Virus record (IMG/VR): IMGVR_UViG_3300024043_000020
Span: 1-43,493 of that record
From: a virus
Taxonomy: Duplodnaviria > Caudoviricetes
Length of the DNA stretch: 43,493 nt
Direction: 5' to 3' (one strand)
Positions 9,714 through 43,493 of this stretch are shown piece by piece. The translations under genes and the position numbers were made by a program. Under the pieces are notes generated by a model that was given only the letters and a program-made list of their open reading frames with translations, was not told the origin of the DNA and did not search any database. Positions within the stretch are counted from its first letter, which is position 1, and every line of letters starts with the position of its first letter.

Positions 9714-10700
9714 CTACGCGGCGGCGGCCATCTGATATTGCCGAGCAGCGTCGATATAGCCGCCGAAGCGCACGCTCAGCTCACGCTGGGCGGTCGCCAC
9801 CAACGACGCCGTGCGATCGACGGCGTCCGAAAGTTGCAGCAACACGGTCAGCACCTCGGTCGGCATCTTCGCCGGCGCGTCCGGGTCATAGCCTGGCGCC
9901 TTCGCCAGCTCACTGACCATCCAGACATCGAGCGCCTCGACCGCTTCTAGATGACGCGCTACGGCCTCGTCGATGATCGTCTGGCGCTGGGTGATCTCTT
10001 CCTTGAAATCGGCCACGCGCTCATCCCAGGGCGCGGTGCGCAGCTGCAGCTTTTCCAGTGATTTCTGCGTCGCGTCCAGCTTCTGGGTGCGTTCGGCCAG
10101 CACCTTCTCGGTCGCTTTGTGGTCCGCCTCGACGTCGGCGACCTTGGCCTCCAGCGCCGCCTTTTCCTGGGCATGCTTGGCGATCACGGTTTCGGCGAAG
10201 TCGATGAAGGCGTCCTTGTCGCCGGCCTTGGCCACCTCGATCAGCGCGGTCTTGTCGTCGTCCGGCAGGCGGCGGTACTGGCGCATTTCGCGGTAGCCGA
10301 TGCCCATGCGGGACATGCTTTCGAGGGCTTCTTCGCCGAAGGTGCGGAGATTGGCGATGTCCTGATTGGCCTTCTCGTCCGATACGCCCAGCAGCCCGCA
10401 GAATTCAACCCAAGTACCTTTCAACTCCAAACCGTTTGGAGCACGCTTCCCTGTAAGCCCTTGATATAGCTTGTTTTCCTTCACATAAGCCAGCTTTGAA
10501 CTCCAAACGGTTTGGGAAAATTTCCCAAAAGCGTCCGCCATCTGTGCCTGCCCGAGCAGCTGGTTCACCAGATCGCGTTCATCCGAATACGACTCGGTGA
10601 TCTGCGCCAGCTCGCGCCCGGCGGCCTCGGCGTTCTGAAATGCCGCGTTGTTCATCGGCGTCTCCGCCAACTCCGTGGCCTTGTTCGGCTTGCGTGCCAT
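9714..10700 (-). CDS. DUF3102-like early protein (328 aa)
   Basis: Real start MARKPNKAT (ATG 10700, GGGAG SD); LRTFGEEALESMSRMGIGYREMRQYRRLP and coiled coils, typical of the gene upstream of B3-type transposases. Confidence 0.8.
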   Translation of the reverse strand: MARKPNKATELAETPMNNAAFQNAEAAGRELAQITESYSDERDLVNQLLGQAQMADAFGKFSQTVWSSKLAYVKENKLYQGLTGKRAPNGLELKGTWVEFCGLLGVSDEKANQDIANLRTFGEEALESMSRMGIGYREMRQYRRLPDDDKTALIEVAKAGDKDAFIDFAETVIAKHAQEKAALEAKVADVEADHKATEKVLAERTQKLDATQKSLEKLQLRTAPWDERVADFKEEITQRQTIIDEAVARHLEAVEALDVWMVSELAKAPGYDPDAPAKMPTEVLTVLLQLSDAVDRTASLVATAQRELSVRFGGYIDAARQYQMAAAA

Positions 10701-10711
10701 GTTTTCTCCCT

Positions 10712-11029
10712 TCAGTTGGTCAACGTGTAATTGCGCTTCAGGCTGGCTAGGTCGGCCTCGGCCCGGTCGAATGCCGCCAGCACGCGCATCGCGCAGCGTG
10801 AAAAATGCGTGGTAATGTGAAAGCGCCCGGTGGCTTCGTCCTTGCGCACCCAGCCCTTTTCGATCAGCGTGGCGGCGGTGCGGGTGACGTACGGCGCCGG
10901 GCAGCGCAGGTGCGTCGCCAGATCGGCGTTCGACAGCCCGCGCAACGGCTCGGCCGCCAGCACCTCCAGCATCGCCAGCGCGCGCAGCACCTGCGCGCTC
11001 GCCTTGCTCTGGTCGGCGCCCGCGCTCAT
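10712..11029 (-). CDS. IclR-type HTH DNA-binding protein
   Basis: RALAMLEVL...GLSNADLATHLRCPAPYVTRTAATLIEKGWVRKD. Confidence 0.85.
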   Translation of the reverse strand: MSAGADQSKASAQVLRALAMLEVLAAEPLRGLSNADLATHLRCPAPYVTRTAATLIEKGWVRKDEATGRFHITTHFSRCAMRVLAAFDRAEADLASLKRNYTLTN

Positions 11030-11322
11030 GCCGCCGCACCCTGGCCGCGCACGCGAAATCCGAATTTCGCCGCCAGCGCCTCACAGGACGCGCGCGACAG
11101 GTCGAAGGCGGTTCGGCCAACCCACAGCGCCTCATCTTTCGGGGCCATGTTGAGAGAGACGTCGCAGCGGCACGCTTTGGCGTACACCAGGGCACGGCCG
11201 GATTCCGGGTCCATAACGAGTGCGGAAATATCCGGGGAATCACAAGAGGTGGACACGGCAAGCGTCAACCCGGTGCATGCGGAAGGCACTTCCAGCCGGG
11301 GGGCAATTCCAGAAGCGGACAT
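11026..11322 (-). CDS. Hypothetical protein (98 aa)
   Basis: MSASGIAPRLEVPSAC... from ATG 11322 with an AGGAG SD. Confidence 0.7.
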   Translation of the reverse strand: MSASGIAPRLEVPSACTGLTLAVSTSCDSPDISALVMDPESGRALVYAKACRCDVSLNMAPKDEALWVGRTAFDLSRASCEALAAKFGFRVRGQGAAA

Positions 11323-11333
11323 CTTTTCTCCTT

Positions 11334-11810
11334 TCAGAACTCGAATTCCGGTGCCGCATGCTTGGCGACGTTGGCGTGATGGAAAGCCACCTGGCCAAGG
11401 TGGTGGGAGAGCGCCGCCAGCGTCGCGCTGGCGTCGGCGCGGCCGCTGTAGTGATCCGTCAGCAGCCGCAGCGCATCCGAAAAACCGCTGTGCAGCGCCA
11501 CCACATCGGCGTCCACCAGGTCGCGGCCGGTCGGCATGTCGATCAGCAGCTGGTTGCCGTTGGCGGCCAACCACCGCGTGACGAAATTGACGCCGCACGC
11601 CGCTTCATAGGCCGGGATCAGCACGGCCGGCATGCGTCCGTTTTCCAGCCACTTGTAGAGCGTCCAGTGATCTGCCAGGCCCATGACGGCGGCAATGCGC
11701 TCGACCGACTGATTGCGCTGGCCGCGGGCGTGCTCCTTGCACAGCTCCATCGCGTGGCGCAGGCTGATCGGCTGGATACGCTTCCAATTTCGGCGGCGGT
11801 TTGCTGTCAC
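11334..11810 (-). CDS. Phage regulatory (CII-like) HTH protein
   Basis: RRNWKRIQPISLRHAMELCK...SVERIAAVMGLADHWTLYKWLENGRMP; probable GTG start at 11810. Confidence 0.75.
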   Translation of the reverse strand: MTANRRRNWKRIQPISLRHAMELCKEHARGQRNQSVERIAAVMGLADHWTLYKWLENGRMPAVLIPAYEAACGVNFVTRWLAANGNQLLIDMPTGRDLVDADVVALHSGFSDALRLLTDHYSGRADASATLAALSHHLGQVAFHHANVAKHAAPEFEF

Positions 11811-11834
11811 CGGATTTCCCCCATTCCCTAGTGT

Positions 11835-11863
11835 TTCCAATCAAATAAGCGCTCTGGTACTAT
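11835..11863 (+). promoter_or_regulatory. Putative sigma70 promoter for the antisense gene
   Basis: TTCCAA (11835-40), 17 nt, TACTAT (11858-63), with an extended -10 TGn. Confidence 0.55.
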
Positions 11864-12537
11864 CCAGAAACACGAGGCGCGCCTACCATTTGCACGGTTC
11901 TGAATCGTTGGCGAGGCAGTGATGGTCGAAACGAAATTGCTGGAAACACTGGTCGAGCGCGCCGTCGCGGCACACACGGCCGAAACGCGCGGCGCGCTTT
12001 GGGTACATACCCAGTTGCTGTGCCGCTTGACGCAGCAATTGTCGAAAGAGGCAGTTCAGCAGGTTGCTCTGGCAACGGATGAGGCGTGGCTGGCGCTCCC
12101 CGAACCCGAAAGAGAGGTTGCGCGGGCCAGCATGGATCAGTGGCGGAAGTACCTGGCGCAGCGAAGCGGGCTCGTAGAAGGCGAAACGCCGCCATTATTT
12201 CCCCCGCCCGAGCCAACGCATCCGCCTGATCCGCCAGGGCCGGGGCGATAGCGGCAACGCTGATATAAGCGTGCGGCAGCAGTTCGTAGGAGGTGCCGCT
12301 GCCATTGGGCGTGGTGCGGGCAGAGCACGGTGCGTCGCCGGCCATCTGAAGCAGAAGCGCGGTAGTTCGGTCAGCAGCGAGCAGCGCGCTGTGGCGGCCA
12401 GCATCGATTTCGGCGGCGGAGTAGCCTGGTGCCGGCTGCAGGCGCACCAGCCCGGCCTCGACCAGGGGCAGCAGTGTGCGGCGGGTGTGCTCGTCGAGCC
12501 CGAAGAGATAGGCGAAGGGATGCGCGGGGATATGCAT
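11860..12537 (-). CDS. Hypothetical early protein; 3' half overlaps the antisense gene
   Basis: MHIPAHPFAYLFGLDEHTRR... from ATG 12537 with a GAGG SD, 8 nt after the upstream gene's stop. The C-terminal half looks like low-information read-through. Confidence 0.5.
   Translation of the reverse strand: MHIPAHPFAYLFGLDEHTRRTLLPLVEAGLVRLQPAPGYSAAEIDAGRHSALLAADRTTALLLQMAGDAPCSARTTPNGSGTSYELLPHAYISVAAIAPALADQADALARAGEIMAAFRLLRARFAAPGTSATDPCWPAQPLFRVRGAPATPHPLPEQPAELPLSTIAASSGTATGYVPKARRAFRPCVPRRRARPVFPAISFRPSLPRQRFRTVQMVGAPRVSG
11922..12251 (+). CDS. Antisense helical hypothetical protein (109 aa, Pro-rich tail)
   Basis: MVETKLLETLVERAVAAH...; GAGG SD at 11913-16 and an upstream promoter match. 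Confidence 0.6.
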   Translation: MVETKLLETLVERAVAAHTAETRGALWVHTQLLCRLTQQLSKEAVQQVALATDEAWLALPEPEREVARASMDQWRKYLAQRSGLVEGETPPLFPPPEPTHPPDPPGPGR

Positions 12538-12545
12538 GCCCGGCC

Positions 12546-12815
12546 TCACGCTGCTGCTGCGATGTTGTCCAGCGTCGGCCGGCCGGAGCCGCGGCGATGC
12601 TCTTGTGTAGGCATGCCGGCACTGCCGTCCTTCATGCCGAGCGCGACGGCAATCTGGTGCGCCTTGCCGTAGTTGGCCTTGTCGAAGCCATTCAGCACGC
12701 GGTACACCGCGTGCGGCTTCCAGCCGTTTTCGCGGGCAAAGTCGGAAATGGTTTGGCCGCGGTCGCGGAAGCCTTGCTTGATGCGTTCCGCTTTTTTGAG
12801 TTGCTCCGGGGTCAT
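12546..12815 (-). CDS. Ner/Cro-like DNA-binding protein (BcepMu gp16 family)
   Basis: RGQTISDFARENGW...VYRVLNG...YGKAHQIAVALGMK; first early gene, divergent from the repressor. Confidence 0.88.
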   Translation of the reverse strand: MTPEQLKKAERIKQGFRDRGQTISDFARENGWKPHAVYRVLNGFDKANYGKAHQIAVALGMKDGSAGMPTQEHRRGSGRPTLDNIAAAA

Positions 12816-12871
12816 TGGCGTGACTCCTGTGTAAAAGATAGTTTGGTGTTGTTTGTGATTTGTTGGGATTG

Positions 12872-12900
12872 ATTATTGTGCTGAATTCAGCACAAGTCAA
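12872..12900 (-). promoter_or_regulatory. Early promoter with a 20-bp palindromic operator in its spacer
   Basis: Minus strand TTGACT-17 nt-AATAAT; perfect palindrome TTGTGCTGAATTCAGCACAA at 12876-12895. Confidence 0.8.
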
Positions 12901-12924
12901 GATGTTTTATGGGCTGTTATTGGC

Positions 12925-13353
12925 ATGATTTCCGAAAGACTGAAGGGGGAGCGGAAGAGGCTTGGTTACAGCCAGGAGGATTTCGCGGCCCTGGCTGGCA
13001 TCACAAGGCGTCCATATGCCGAATGGGAGGCCGGCAAAACATCGCCCACAGCAGTGCAGCTCGCTGCTCTCGGAGAGGCGGGTGCCGATGTGCAGTACAT
13101 CGTGACGGGCCACCGACAAGGCCAAGGGATTGGTGACTCTGCCGTGCATCAGGCGGTACTCGACGCCGTAGATTTACTGTCGCTGGCAAAAAAGGTTGAT
13201 GCTCAGCAGTTGGCCAAGGCGGTGGTGAAGCTGTGTGCCAAGTCCGCCATGCCGCTACTCCCTACTCGATACGAAGGCTCTCAACAAAACTTCCACGGGC
13301 CTATAACTGGGGAGGTGGCTGGGAGAGATATCGTCAAAAAGGAGGAGAAATGA
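12925..13353 (+). CDS. XRE-family prophage repressor without an S24 peptidase domain
   Basis: ISERLKGERKRLGYSQEDFAALAGITRRPYAEWEAGKTSP...ADVQYIVTG; 142 aa; divergent from the early operon. Confidence 0.9.
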   Translation: MISERLKGERKRLGYSQEDFAALAGITRRPYAEWEAGKTSPTAVQLAALGEAGADVQYIVTGHRQGQGIGDSAVHQAVLDAVDLLSLAKKVDAQQLAKAVVKLCAKSAMPLLPTRYEGSQQNFHGPITGEVAGRDIVKKEEK

Positions 13354-13868
13354 CTGCTTTGAGGCAAGACTTTCTGGGGGTCGTCGAGGGCGGCGTTGCC
13401 GGCCGCGATGTCAATCATCACCATAACAATCGGACCACGGTTCTTCAATTCACCCAGCAGAAGCCGGAATCTCAATTGCAAAGTGAATTCGCACGGCGGA
13501 CAGGTATCTGGTGCCCCAAACCTGCCCGCGAGTGGCTGGAATCGTTGATGGCCGACCACCAATTTACGGCGCGCGAACTGGCGGTGTCCTGGAAGGCGGG
13601 GTCGATAGGATGGCATGCTGAGACAAACGAAAAACGCATCGTCACCCCCTGGATCGAGGCCGCATTCGTGTATTTGATGGGCCTGATGGCACTTCCCGTG
13701 ATAGCGATTTTTGTTTTTTGGACGTTCGCGCCTACCGTGATAAAACCGGGCAATGCGCTCGCGCTCTTCGCCTTGGCTTGCAGCTGGGTCCTTATAGGGT
13801 TGATGGTCAATCGTTTTATGTGGCAGCCGAGACGTGTTGCGCAACGCATTCGTCGTGTGCAACCTTGA
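13350..13868 (+). CDS. 2-TM membrane protein (172 aa) sharing an N-terminal motif with the repressor C-terminus
   Basis: ATGA overlap with the repressor stop and an AGGAGG SD; MTALRQDFLGVVEGGVAGRDV...; two hydrophobic helices near the C-terminus followed by an Arg-rich tail. Confidence 0.85.
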   Translation: MTALRQDFLGVVEGGVAGRDVNHHHNNRTTVLQFTQQKPESQLQSEFARRTGIWCPKPAREWLESLMADHQFTARELAVSWKAGSIGWHAETNEKRIVTPWIEAAFVYLMGLMALPVIAIFVFWTFAPTVIKPGNALALFALACSWVLIGLMVNRFMWQPRRVAQRIRRVQP

Positions 13869-13928
13869 AACGCGCGTGACGGGAAATAATTTTGTCCGTC
13901 ACGGCAGCTGCATCGAAGGGGGGAATTA

Positions 13929-14429
13929 ATGCGCTCAATCACGAAAACTGTGTTCATCACGACGACATTGCTTCTTGGCGGATGCGCAATCACTAGCGGC
14001 CACCACTCAGGACCGAACGGTCGGCCAGTGCATTTCATCGATGGCATGTCTGCCTCGGTCGCATATCAAAAAGCTGGGGAACTGTGTCCGTCAGGCTACG
14101 CCATTATTGGCGAGCCGCGCCAAGTATCGATCATGGACTACACGATGACAATTGAATGTAAAAGCACCGGCGTCGTTGCAAGGGGCGCTGTGCAGCAACA
14201 GCCCGGCGTGGTAGCCACTCCGGCGGTGGCTGTTGCGACTGCCAGAAAACCATCCGGGGAAATGTCTTTCGAGGTTGAGAAACTTGCCAAGCAGGCTGGT
14301 TGTCAGCCTGCGGCAAGTGCAGCGCTGATTGCTAAAACCACCGGTATTGAAACCTACCAGGTTAGTTGCGCGGACGGCCAGCAGGCGCTATTCAAATGCG
14401 AACTACGGCAGTGCCGGGTGATGAATTAG
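13929..14429 (+). CDS. Cys-rich lipoprotein
   Basis: Signal peptide with lipobox LLGG-C19; six further Cys in two domains joined by a Q/A/V-rich linker. Confidence 0.85.
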   Translation: MRSITKTVFITTTLLLGGCAITSGHHSGPNGRPVHFIDGMSASVAYQKAGELCPSGYAIIGEPRQVSIMDYTMTIECKSTGVVARGAVQQQPGVVATPAVAVATARKPSGEMSFEVEKLAKQAGCQPAASAALIAKTTGIETYQVSCADGQQALFKCELRQCRVMN

Positions 14430-14482
14430 GCCAGTTAAAATAGAGCGGACAAATTCCAACAACGATAGGGAGACAAAATCAG

Positions 14483-14668
14483 ATGGCAACGGATAAAAAC
14501 TCAAACCATTCCAATAATCAACGAGAAGCCCCTCTGACCGAGCGTAGGAAGGACAGCGATGTCCATTACAGCGAATATCCGGGAACGCGGCGTGACAATA
14601 CAGTCAGCAACACGTTGCCGCCCCCGCCCATCCGCAAGGACAACGACAATGGCAACGACGACGAGTAG
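14483..14668 (+). CDS. 61-aa hydrophilic micro-peptide with TVSNTLPPPP motif
   Basis: GGGAG SD upstream; overlaps the start of the next gene by 20 nt. Confidence 0.6.
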   Translation: MATDKNSNHSNNQREAPLTERRKDSDVHYSEYPGTRRDNTVSNTLPPPPIRKDNDNGNDDE

Positions 14669-15200
14669 CCTGGAAGAAAAGTGGCACGATCAGCTGTTCG
14701 GTGTACGGCGCTCGATTCGCTACCACCAGCGGCGGCGCGCCTTCTTTGATCGCCTGGACCAGTTCGGCAACATGTTGTCGGTCGTGCTGGGCTCCACCGC
14801 GATCTACGGCATATTGGAAAGCAGTTCTAAAACCTTGGCATTGTCCGCCACTGCAGCTGTCACGATATTTTCTGCGGTGAATCTCGTCTTTGGTTCGGTG
14901 CAAAAGGCCCGGACCCATGCGGAACTTGCACGGCGTTTTGTCGTATTGGAAAAGCGTTTTCTGGATGCCCCAACACCAGAACTTTTGTGTGAAATAACCA
15001 ACGAACGGCTTTCCATCGAGGCCGAAGAGCCGCCAGTACTGCGGGTTCTCGATTGTCTGTGTCACAACGAACTGATGCGGGCTGAGGGCTACCCTCATTC
15101 TCAACTTGCTCAAATAAGTTTTTTGCAATCCTGCCTCGCTCAGCTGGTGGACTGGTTCCCTAGCTCGATTCAACCGCAAAAATCAACGAAGCACTCCTAG
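14649..15200 (+). CDS. SLATT-like 2TM effector-type protein (183 aa)
   Basis: RSIRYHQRRRAFFDRL, TM1, TM2, KARTHAELARRFVVLE...RLSIEAEEPP; AAGGA SD before ATG 14649. Confidence 0.7.
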   Translation: MATTTSSLEEKWHDQLFGVRRSIRYHQRRRAFFDRLDQFGNMLSVVLGSTAIYGILESSSKTLALSATAAVTIFSAVNLVFGSVQKARTHAELARRFVVLEKRFLDAPTPELLCEITNERLSIEAEEPPVLRVLDCLCHNELMRAEGYPHSQLAQISFLQSCLAQLVDWFPSSIQPQKSTKHS

Positions 15201-15213
15201 TTGGCGCTGTCTT

Positions 15214-15260
15214 GATTTTGCCCTCGTTCAAAAGACTCTGATGCCCTGAAACCGGATGAT
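15214..15260 (+). promoter_or_regulatory. Putative activator-dependent late promoter 1 (lysis/head operon)
   Basis: GATTTTGCCCTCGTTCAAAAGACT, 17 nt, GATGAT; 23/24 identical to the copy at 23439. Confidence 0.8.
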
Positions 15261-15298
15261 GGTGGCTCCAACCGCCGTCACCCGGATCAGGAGCATCC

Positions 15299-15664
15299 AT
15301 GCCTCTCAAGCACCCGTTTCCGTTTGCGCGGCGCCTGCCGCGCAGCACTGCCTGGTTACTGGCATCCCTCATCCTGCTGCTGGCGCTCGCCGCCGTCGCC
15401 CCGCAGCAGCTCCCGATCGCTCTGTACAAGCTGACGCTGATCGCACTGGCCGCCGTGGTCGGCTACTGGATCGATCGCGGCCTGTTCCCCTATGCCCGTC
15501 CGGACAGCTATCTGCACCGCGATTGGCGCTACGGCACCGACGAGCCGGAGGGGGATGTCGACTATCCGCTGGTCGGCCCGTATCACCGCGTGTTCGCCGC
15601 CGCCATGCTGCGCCGCGCCGTGATTGTCGGCGCGGTCGTGATCGGCGTCGCACTGGGGCTGTGA
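15299..15664 (+). CDS. Holin (putative 2/3-TM holin family)
   Basis: PQQLPIALYKLTLIALAAVVGYWIDRGLFPYARP...AAMLRRAVIV; first late gene. Confidence 0.88.
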   Translation: MPLKHPFPFARRLPRSTAWLLASLILLLALAAVAPQQLPIALYKLTLIALAAVVGYWIDRGLFPYARPDSYLHRDWRYGTDEPEGDVDYPLVGPYHRVFAAAMLRRAVIVGAVVIGVALGL

Positions 15665-16386
15665 TGCATCTGGCCGCGATCATTCTTATCGTTTTTATTT
15701 CGATCTCAATGGGGGTTTCCATTGGCCTTCACGGCGAACAGCGTCAGCATGATGCCTACGCAGCCGTACTGCACAAACTGATCCTGCTCGGGCTGCTGGC
15801 TTGGGGCGGCTTCTTCGCGCCGCCAGCCAAGGCCCAGATTCCGGACGCCGCCGTCAAGCACCGCGCCGAGCTGACCCGCAACGCCCGCGCCGTCTGGGGG
15901 CTGGATGCCCCGGTCGCCACCTTCGCCGCGCAGATTCACCAGGAATCCGCCTGGCGGCCGGGTGCGGTCAGCCAGGTCGGTGCCGAAGGCATGGCCCAGT
16001 TCATGCCGGCCACGGCAAGCTGGATTGCCGGCATCTACCCAAGAACCCTCGGCGCCGCCGCGCCCTACAACCCGTCCTGGGCCATGCGCGCCCTGGTGCA
16101 GTACGACGCCTGGCTGCATCAACGAATCCGAGCCGCAAGCCCGTGCGAGCGCCTGGCCTTTGTCCTGTCCGCCTACAACGGCGGCCTGGGCTGGGTCGAC
16201 CGAGACAAAAAACTGGCATCGGGTAAGGGGCTCGATCCGCTGGTTTGGTTCGGATCGGTCGAGCGCGTCAATGCTGGCCGCTCGGCCGTCAACTGGCAAG
16301 AAAACCGCAACTACCCGCAGCGCATCCTGCTGCACCATGAGCCGCTCTACATCGCGGCCGGCTGGGGCCGAGGGGTGTGCACATGA
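15664..16386 (+). CDS. Endolysin: lytic transglycosylase (SLT) with hydrophobic N-terminus
   Basis: AQIHQES, GAEGMAQFMPAT, SAYNGGLG motifs; start ATG 15664 overlaps the holin stop. Confidence 0.92.
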   Translation: MHLAAIILIVFISISMGVSIGLHGEQRQHDAYAAVLHKLILLGLLAWGGFFAPPAKAQIPDAAVKHRAELTRNARAVWGLDAPVATFAAQIHQESAWRPGAVSQVGAEGMAQFMPATASWIAGIYPRTLGAAAPYNPSWAMRALVQYDAWLHQRIRAASPCERLAFVLSAYNGGLGWVDRDKKLASGKGLDPLVWFGSVERVNAGRSAVNWQENRNYPQRILLHHEPLYIAAGWGRGVCT

Positions 16387-16811
16387 TCTCGGCCAAGGCA
16401 CTGGCATGCGTTGTCCTGGCCGGCCTGCTGATGACGGCCGCCGGGACGATAGGCGGCTACTGGTACGGCCACGGCGCCGGCGTCGCCGACGAAAAAGGCC
16501 GCGCCAGCGCAGAAGCCGTGAAAGACCTGACCGCCATCATCGACGCCGGCAAAGGACTGATCAACGACGCCAACGACGCCAGCAAGGCCATGCGCGCGGC
16601 CGTCGCCGCCCGCGCCCTCCAGGACAAAAAGACCACGGGAGAACTGAAAGATGCACTCGCCAAGACGGCCGGCAGCCGTGTTGATTGCCGCTTCGATGAT
16701 GACAGCATGCGCCAGCTCGGCGCCGCCCGGGAGCGCGCCACCGCAGCTGCTGCCGGCGGAATACGCGGCGAGCTGCCCGCCGCCGGTGGCGCCCATCAGC
16801 AACCTCGCTGA
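16383..16811 (+). CDS. i-spanin (Rz-like)
   Basis: N-terminal TM followed by a helical coiled coil; directly after the endolysin. Confidence 0.75.
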   Translation: MISAKALACVVLAGLLMTAAGTIGGYWYGHGAGVADEKGRASAEAVKDLTAIIDAGKGLINDANDASKAMRAAVAARALQDKKTTGELKDALAKTAGSRVDCRFDDDSMRQLGAARERATAAAAGGIRGELPAAGGAHQQPR

Positions 16812-40438: not shown

Positions 40439-41236
40439 ATGCAGGAATCAAGTCCAATCATTCCTTGGCTGGGCGGCAAGCGGCGCCTTGCCGATAGACT
40501 CATTCCCTTGTTCCCCGATCACGAATGCTACGTTGAGGTGTTTTGTGGCGGTGCCGCTCTTTATTTTCTACGCCCGGTGCCGGCCAGGACCGAGGTGTTG
40601 AACGACATCAATGGCGACCTGGTCAATCTCTACCGAGTTGTGCAGCACCACCTCGAGGAATTTGTTCGTCAGTTCAAATGGGCGATCAGCAGCCGGGAAA
40701 TTTTCAAGTGGCAGCAACTAACCAGGGTAGAAACGCTGACAGATATCCAGAGAGCAGCCCGGTTCTACTATTTACAGCAACACGCATTCGGCGGCCGCGT
40801 CGCAGGACAAACTTTCGGTACAGCCACGACCGGCCCTGCTATCAACTTGTGCCGGATCGAGGAAAATCTCAGCGCCGCCCATCTTCGGTTGGCTGGGACA
40901 TATGTCGAGAATCTACCCTGGGAAGACTGTATGCAGCGCTACGACCGGCCGCACAGTTTTATGTACCTCGATCCGCCATATTGGCAAACCGAGGGGTACG
41001 GCGTCGATTTCCCGTTCAGTGAATACGAGCGGATGGCTCGGTTGATGCACAGCGCAAAGGGGAAGGTGATGGTCAGCATCAACGACCATCCCGACATCCG
41101 CCGGGTGTTTTCCGGGTTCGAGATGATGGACCTGGACATCAAGTACAGCCTGGCCAACACGGCCGGACCAGCGTCGACCAGCAAGGAGCTGGTGATCATG
41201 AATTGGGAGCCGGCAGCGCTTGGAGGGCTATTCTAA
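40439..41236 (+). CDS. DNA adenine methyltransferase (Dam/D12 class)
   Basis: PWLGGKRRLA, YVEVFCGGAA, LNDIN, YLDPPY motifs. Confidence 0.93.
   Translation: MQESSPIIPWLGGKRRLADRLIPLFPDHECYVEVFCGGAALYFLRPVPARTEVLNDINGDLVNLYRVVQHHLEEFVRQFKWAISSREIFKWQQLTRVETLTDIQRAARFYYLQQHAFGGRVAGQTFGTATTGPAINLCRIEENLSAAHLRLAGTYVENLPWEDCMQRYDRPHSFMYLDPPYWQTEGYGVDFPFSEYERMARLMHSAKGKVMVSINDHPDIRRVFSGFEMMDLDIKYSLANTAGPASTSKELVIMNWEPAALGGLF

Positions 41237-42197: not shown

Positions 42198-43493
<1,296 letters not shown>

Follow-up and report, generated by a model that had tools for sequence, protein, structure and literature searches.

Matching terminal tags on a prophage immunity repressor and its exchangeable neighbour: a candidate input to the lysogeny switch

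The window, meaning the whole stretch of 43,493 nucleotides that was analysed (positions 1 to 43,493 of IMG/VR record IMGVR_UViG_3300024043_000020; Duplodnaviria, Caudoviricetes), is a complete provirus record of the B3/Mu-like transposable prophage type, with transposases A and B, a Ner-like regulator, a holin, and a Mu-type portal among its genes (Pfam, PHROG). The immunity layout is that of B3/Mu-like phages, with an HTH repressor divergent from the Ner-like gene, transposase A/B on the early side, and the holin on the late side (phrog_310, phrog_296, phrog_925, holin, and Mu portal families); the annotation of phage B3 has the identical layout, its ORF17 and ORF18 forming the Ner-like/repressor arrangement. 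A D12-class adenine methyltransferase gene is located close to the right end (40439-41236, +), and the flank is marked by isocitrate lyase, a host gene at the edge of the window (42198-43493, -). The two genes of interest are in the immunity region, where the repressor gene (P0001, 12925-13353) is transcribed away from the Ner-like gene. Another public run yielded a contig that covers 11008-16730 with zero letter differences, which excludes an assembly error for this pair; contig depth in the sole RNA run that contains the region is flat across lytic and lysogenic genes and uninformative on expression. The features of the region are as follows.

12546..12815, - strand: Ner/Cro-like early regulator, transcribed divergently from the repressor (E 1e-25 to phrog_925, an HTH DNA-binding protein; B3 ORF17/ORF18 layout).
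12872..12900, - strand: sigma-70-like promoter consensus aimed at ner, a probable early lytic promoter by consensus only (10/12 consensus match).
12925..13353, + strand: Xre-family HTH immunity repressor P0001, 142 aa, without an S24 domain (PF01381, E 6e-9; PHROG repressor families; repc position in B3-like phages according to the accessible text of PMC9936078).
13135..13248, + strand, bounds approximate: conserved two-helix repressor segment, probably a dimerisation element (alignment A2 has invariant columns here; the model of homologue P0054 has two helices, of low confidence).
13285..13332, + strand: repressor C-terminal tag, aa 121-136, then a lysine-rich end (homologue tails hypervariable, of the same compositional class).
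13350..13868, + strand: partner P0002, translationally coupled to the repressor, 172 aa; two membrane helices are predicted, and its family, of unknown function, numbered 31 proteins in a homologue search that included the query.
13365..13412, + strand: N-terminal tag of the partner, aa 6-21, counterpart of the repressor tag (pLDDT ~50 in the monomer model, which leaves it disordered).
13467..13640, + strand: cytoplasmic domain of the partner (aa 40-97), modelled as three helices plus a beta-hairpin (AlphaFold2 pLDDT mostly >90; the most conserved part of alignment A1).
13650..13811, + strand: two predicted transmembrane helices and a short loop (hydropathy; model helices 101-126 and 133-170).
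13929..14429, + strand: downstream accessory gene, probable lipoprotein, untagged (signal-peptide-like N-terminus and lipobox-like Cys; no family match).
14649..15200, + strand: downstream accessory two-TM protein, untagged (phrog_11791, E 3e-63; SLATT_1, E 3e-4, below cut-off).

A short polar ORF (14483-14668, +) precedes the weakly SLATT-like two-TM gene (14649-15200, +), and the two (14483-15200), which lie between the holin and the immunity region, may be a defence cassette. On the other side, a 110-aa forward ORF of no known family (11919-12251, +) is located between ner and a CII-like gene, at a position that corresponds to the exclusion-gene site of the B3-like phage Fc02 as given in the accessible text of PMC9936078.

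Pfam yielded only HTH families for the repressor, whose chain ends six residues past the tag. An S24-type repressor of the SOS-cleavable LexA/lambda CI kind was rejected because Pfam found no C-terminal S24 autoprotease domain, as had been noted from the sequence before any database search. Repressor homologues have the HTH and the two-helix segment in common and carry hypervariable, G/N/Q/V/I-rich tails that are basic at the end. The AlphaFold2 model of homologue P0054, which has an extended, repeated tail, contains no beta-solenoid, and the tail pLDDT is below 50, which is uninformative for a motif that folds conditionally. The repressor tail gave no usable match in the ESM Atlas. The repressor is unannotated or truncated in the reference records of phages JBD25 (NC_027992.1, 11539-11910) and JBD67 (NC_042135.1, ~10010-10400), though the HTH ORF is intact in both.

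The partner has hydrophobic helices at about aa 101-124 and 133-154 by hydropathy and six K/R residues after the second helix. Hydropathy, the AlphaFold2 model, and the basic C-terminus fit an N-in/C-in topology, in which the tag-bearing N-terminus would be cytoplasmic; the earlier description of a two-TM protein with its motif in the cytoplasm is thus consistent with the model. P0002 has no match in Pfam, PHROG, NCBIfam, or PADLOC, no meaningful match among PDB sequences, and only unnamed clusters in the ESM Atlas; no family is common to more than 2 of its 31 homologues. It matches none of the described two-TM antiphage effectors (SLATT, CBASS-type) in Pfam, NCBIfam, or PADLOC. A fold search with the partner model returned generic helical hairpins only (best Z 8.8, aa 95-172), and aa 40-97 was uncovered by these matches. 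Among the homologues the body is conserved and the N-termini are variable, of the same compositional class as the repressor tails, and AlphaFold2 leaves the tags disordered in the monomer models of both P0002 and P0054. Fused longer forms of this partner family numbered 0 among 8000 candidates of 399-2000 aa, which is weak evidence. Two partner-profile searches of 401 genomes each returned 2 and 1 matches, centre genomes included, so the partners are patchily distributed.

The repressor and partner ORFs (12925-13353 and 13350-13868) overlap by ATGA, and a GGAGG-type site is located just 5' of the second start, in keeping with the translational coupling proposed for the pair. An ungapped alignment of repressor aa 121-136 with partner aa 6-21 has 9/16 identical residues and recovers, at the same coordinates (13285-13332 and 13365-13412), the match reported in the sequence-only reading. 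The local score of this match is 48, which was reached in 0/20,000 shuffles (maximum 47; p ~5e-5). A search of the window in six frames found no third copy of the tag (next best score 28 vs 45). Scored against the tail of its own repressor, the window's partner is only 9th of 74, because the window's tag type is common in the family, so this pair, taken alone, indicates matching of type and not fine, pair-specific tuning.

Co-variation was surveyed in 206 loci fetched by repressor queries only, two of the query sets being the best 80 of larger sets. An HMM-called repressor was present in 199; filtering by length and flank left 178, and dereplication to below 80% identity left 124. Repressor tails were classed by composition alone as tailed (65), intermediate (9), or untailed (50), and downstream ORF starts were chosen by a symmetric rule. 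The 65 tailed repressors scored 40.1 with the gene downstream of them and 25.0 with those of other loci (p<1e-5; 100,000 permutations, maximum 29.3). Scores of at least 35 were reached by 37/65 own tailed pairs vs 10% of mismatched pairs, and the own partner was ranked first for 16/65. For the 50 untailed repressors the scores were 21.7 (own) and 20.6 (others; p 0.036), with 3/50 at 35 or above. When partners were chosen blind, tail similarity predicted partner N-terminus similarity with HTH similarity and body similarity controlled for (partial Mantel r=0.217, p=0.0003, n=72). Tail similarity and HTH similarity had a rho of -0.02, and on this measure a change of tag type does not follow the HTH domain. 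An HTH tree (50 rows, 74 columns; 6/47 branches well supported) was too weak to count tag switches, and the distance test was therefore relied on. Because the tail and the start of the partner gene are neighbouring DNA, they are passed on together, and part of the co-variation between loci is linkage; linkage accounts for their travelling together, not for their resemblance within each type.

A descriptive set of 50 pairs was drawn from 72 loci (score >=29, partner >=95 aa; L027, L105, and L120 removed by hand), and tests on it are biased upward because it was picked by a score cut-off. The window's own body family comprises 12 members (nine from this set and three added); in 8/12 the best match of the partner is the repressor of its own locus (47.2 vs 26.9), in a test inflated by the pre-selection. 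A motif-first DNA scan was mostly noise: 2/120 stretches were split-gene, one (L288) a true repressor/partner pair and the other probably chance.

The resemblance could in principle have arisen neutrally, left over from a local duplication of DNA where the two genes meet, or by chance from composition, seeing that the two stretches are 80 nt apart and of biased composition. This is very improbable and largely refuted: the shuffle result stands against it, own pairs score far above mismatched pairs of the same composition class, and, where residues are identical, the third bases of four-fold sites agree in own pairs in 81/236 cases vs 470/1511 in mismatched pairs (0.34 vs 0.31, p=0.29). In the window pair they agree at 1/5 such sites. 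A recent DNA duplication was rejected on the same figures, and because synonymous sites are at background, the match is retained at the protein level, as had been argued from the codons of the window pair. The sequence-only reading had also asked for co-occurrence and co-variation of the motif in the neighbours of homologous repressors; the motif is present there and co-varies over several motif types. From these comparisons we conclude that the matched-tag feature is widespread and under selection.

Very different tag types are each matched within their locus. The types and the loci in which they occur are as follows.

AGRD: this window.
GDFNGQ: L007, L044, and L046.
NRxAGRDY: L010, L149, and L196.
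NQGQITQSG/NRGQTTQSG: L015.
RHIM-like VQIG/VQVG core: L201, L146, and L157.
Lysine-rich: L145 and L194.

Matched pairs are also carried by the cultured phages B3, Ps59, and KS10 and by record YO107_2. Two prophages of one strain of Rhodocyclus tenuis carry different tag types (L005, L016), and the Chromobacterium loci L007 and L010 likewise differ in type, each matched within its locus. In L130:2492-3593, each of two tandem HTH genes terminates in a tag of one shared type and no N-terminally tagged gene was seen, and in L004:3441-4700 two successive downstream genes (zinc-ribbon type and Flk-like) start with the repressor's tag, giving one repressor two tagged partners. The downstream ORFs of L146, L157, L171, and L201 encode small soluble partners with the RHIM-like core, several with an amphipathic-looking N-terminal helix before the tag. 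L012, L039, L045, and L202 form a recurrent pair type whose two tags are consistently unlike each other yet co-occur, which suggests complementary rather than identical pairing.

Scores with the neighbour are below 35 for 28/65 tailed repressors. Nineteen low scorers were inspected (17 from the tailed set and two named phages): about nine are diverged pairs by eye, about eight lack a tagged neighbour (L008, L105, L126, L151, L154, L173, and phages Komp_PAO1_1 and YO077_2), L130 has a second tailed HTH gene next in line, and L091 is unclear. The repressors of phages JBD25, Ps60, and JBD67 are tail-less. Orphan tails and tail-less relatives together indicate that the module is accessory, and the tail-less repressors of these three phages that repression does not generally depend on it.

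Orphan tails that persist without a partner speak for a second alternative, in which the tags, instead of binding each other, are both recognised by some third factor (a phage protein, say, or a protease adaptor of the host), for example as matched degrons that co-regulate turnover. Proteolysis of the Mu repressor is controlled by C-terminal tails, and both tags are terminal and disordered in the monomer models. Types differ, however, between L005 and L016 in one host strain and between L007 and L010 in Chromobacterium while matching per locus, a pattern not expected from a shared host factor; further, the repressor bears its tag at the C-terminus but the partner at the N-terminus, and the window has no third tagged ORF. 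We regard a third factor as improbable. Direct stacking of the two tags is the simplest explanation of protein-level co-variation across types, and the repressor and partner probably bind each other directly through them.

The partner bodies are diverse, falling into 12 BLAST families among the 50 pairs, and a Ner-like neighbour is present in 31 of these loci. The partner starts within 30 nt of the repressor stop in 45/50 and overlaps it in 20/50. A hydrophobic stretch is present in 42/50 partners, 7/50 are clearly soluble, and one is borderline. The largest body family (26/50) has profile matches, all below the curated cut-offs, to Flk (best E 2e-12), to C-terminal halves of Ant-type antirepressors (E ~1e-5), and, weakly, to ORF6C. 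No NLR domain was found in P0002 or in 20 other partners scanned against Pfam.

Single-chain forms occur as well. P0152 (L226:1764-2549) joins an Xre HTH, one G/N/V/I-rich tag-like stretch, and a Flk/antirepressor-like body that is 38% identical to the L005 partner; it is a full-length member of phrog_17822 (unknown function; E 9e-107). L093:2504-3100 joins a repressor, a tag, and a cytoplasmic domain of the window type (hhalign probability 87%), stopping before the membrane part, and a hydrophobic in-frame stretch follows the stop; this single metagenome record may be a broken full fusion gene. Such natural fusions indicate that the HTH and the body are able to act as one unit.

The fusions retain a single tag between HTH and body, and this, with the orphan tails and the two tag-like repeats found in some partners, would also fit a tag that serves self-oligomerisation only, each protein multimerising alone and the match being inherited from a split fusion gene. 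Independent copies would be free to drift, yet the two remain alike across very different types with synonymous sites at background, and we give this explanation little credence.

A stronger rival makes the partner a membrane-acting abortive-infection or exclusion effector, gated on or off by tag co-assembly with a resident or incoming repressor of the same type. The hydrophobic stretch of most partners is in its favour, as is the position of the gene beside a weakly SLATT-like gene, in an accessory region that is lysogen-expressed according to the accessible text of PMC9936078. Tag diversity that is unlinked to the HTH suggests conflict-driven selection, and the known matched-motif pair Bab/Agp ends, as its available text has it, in cell death. 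Against it, the seven soluble partners and the antirepressor-C/Flk-like bodies disfavour a dedicated pore, HTH-body fusions occur, and the partners tested gave no PADLOC match. In the BASS pairs, moreover, so far as the available text describes them, the sensor carries its motif at the N-terminus and the output protein, the death effector, at the C-terminus; by that scheme the output role here falls to the repressor rather than to the membrane protein. We judge a killing effector rather unlikely, and hold it somewhat probable that the partner acts on repression instead. The sequence-only reading had offered both, a sensor that controls the repressor and a killing effector gated by it; the regulatory option is better supported by the soluble partners, the Flk/antirepressor-C-like largest family, and the HTH-tag-body fusions.

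The mechanism that we propose is that matching tags couple an exchangeable partner to the repressor and modulate repression, a proposal to which we give about even chances. Tags of ~16-20 residues would stack like-with-like as beta strands, so that the partner binds the repressor and adjusts its activity, in this window by holding the repressor at the inner membrane. The tag would then link non-covalently what the fused forms join covalently, with the repressor as a constant output and the partner body as an exchangeable input that tunes the switch between dormancy and lysis. As to direction, sequestration and induction are favoured over co-repression. Diversified tag types may prevent cross-talk among co-resident or superinfecting prophages; different types in the two R. 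tenuis prophages are what such insulation, and not a common host ligand, would predict.

Whether the tag fold would be cross-beta/amyloid-type or a small closed beta-zipper is evenly balanced in our estimate. The indications of amyloid character are two, composition (G/N/V/I-rich, Leu-poor) and architecture, and they suggest it. Proline is present inside the aligned motif in 16/50 repressors, the window's included, and in 10/50 partners, and the L145 and L194 pairs are strongly basic on both sides; both features fit an in-register amyloid poorly. Membership in the RHIM (PF12721) or fungal PP (PF17046) families was rejected, with no match in the window at E 10 and the RHIM core absent from the window tag. 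The homotypic half of the original proposal, a homotypic or amyloid-type switch, is supported by co-variation, and its amyloid half is hinted at by composition and architecture only, the RHIM and PP models being unmatched. More tentatively, a widespread class of temperate phages may run its lysogeny repressor through an amyloid-type tag: an exchangeable, often membrane-bound sensor would template the repressor tail into a cross-beta co-assembly, giving a RecA-free switch in which tag types form an orthogonal code of self and non-self for phages that co-infect a cell. If true, this would be amyloid signalling with a transcriptional switch as its output, in a virus.

To our knowledge, how repressors without an autoprotease domain read signals in Mu-like and P2-like prophages is poorly understood. 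With a dozen interchangeable families of partners joined to such repressors, the co-evolving tag points to a general port through which the lysogeny switch takes inputs, and genes so far anonymous, B3 ORF20 among them, gain a testable role. Should the tag be cross-beta, bacterial amyloid signalling would extend from cell-death immunity to viral gene regulation, and the tag types would be a natural library of orthogonal interaction tags.

The closest architectural parallels are the amyloid-signalling pairs of bacteria. In the available text on BASS1-10 (bioRxiv 10.1101/2020.01.06.895854), Bell/NLR pairs encoded by adjacent, collinear, often overlapping genes share a C-terminal/N-terminal motif, with several interchangeable motif families and fused "all-in-one" architectures as well. 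The tag pairs have in common with them the motif shared between the C-terminus and N-terminus of adjacent collinear gene products. They differ in having no NACHT/NB-ARC receptor or TPR-GreA/B-PIN sensor, the N-terminal motif being on a 172-aa partner, and no Bell/Hell/TIR/CHAT-type effector, the C-terminal motif being on an Xre HTH DNA-binding repressor; BASS is described there from multicellular bacteria, whereas the tag pairs are in proteobacterial prophages. The words "HTH" and "phage" have 0 occurrences in the main text of that paper. It names the G-hydrophobic-Q-hydrophobic-G core as the RHIM signature, and among the relatives only, L201, L146, and L157 have this core on both sides.

Bab/Agp (BASS11), an antiphage system of E. 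coli, is a prophage-borne adjacent pair with a ~24-residue glycine-broken beta motif at opposite termini, in which a TPR-GreA/B-PIN sensor triggers a Bell-like death effector (bioRxiv 10.1101/2024.11.07.622273, available text); the pairs here consist instead of an Xre repressor and small variable proteins, and "repressor" and "HTH" have 0 occurrences in that text. In the accessible parts of three further papers, a 2026 review (PMC13506858) has no repressor-linked phage case, PMC12261475 has no mention of phage or HTH, and PMC10884400 is unrelated. No description of a repressor paired with a tagged neighbour was found in the literature searched, which covered few subscription papers and sources available in part; the motif tables of the BASS supplement could hold related motifs. 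The tag pairs thus resemble amyloid-signalling pairs in architecture, but by the sequence features that can be tested they are not BASS or RHIM members.

Regulators offer other likenesses. ORF6C-type modular antirepressors and the enterobacterial membrane-anchored regulator Flk give weak to moderate profile matches to the largest body family, below curated cut-offs; the window's own partner body is unmatched, and the DNA-binding part is here a separate protein joined by the tag. The order of elements in partner aa 40-97 (three helices, then a hairpin) we take to be that of winged-helix domains. A winged-helix fold, as in membrane-tethered regulators of the ToxR/CadC type, is thus no more than a possibility for this domain; the fold search bore on aa 96-172 of the partner, and sequence searches gave no match.

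The B3-like phages (Beetrevirus) have the same layout of repc, ner, and accessory gene. In the Fc02 lysogen, repc and a downstream accessory gene, e4, which has no assigned function, are co-transcribed according to the accessible text of PMC9936078, in which the shared tag is not mentioned; Fc02 is absent from the phage matches found here. B3 ORF18/ORF20 and the Ps59 pair combine matching tags with a two-TM partner, the B3 partner body being from another family than the window's, and because the pair is present in the cultured phage B3, which grows on a standard laboratory host, the question is directly testable.
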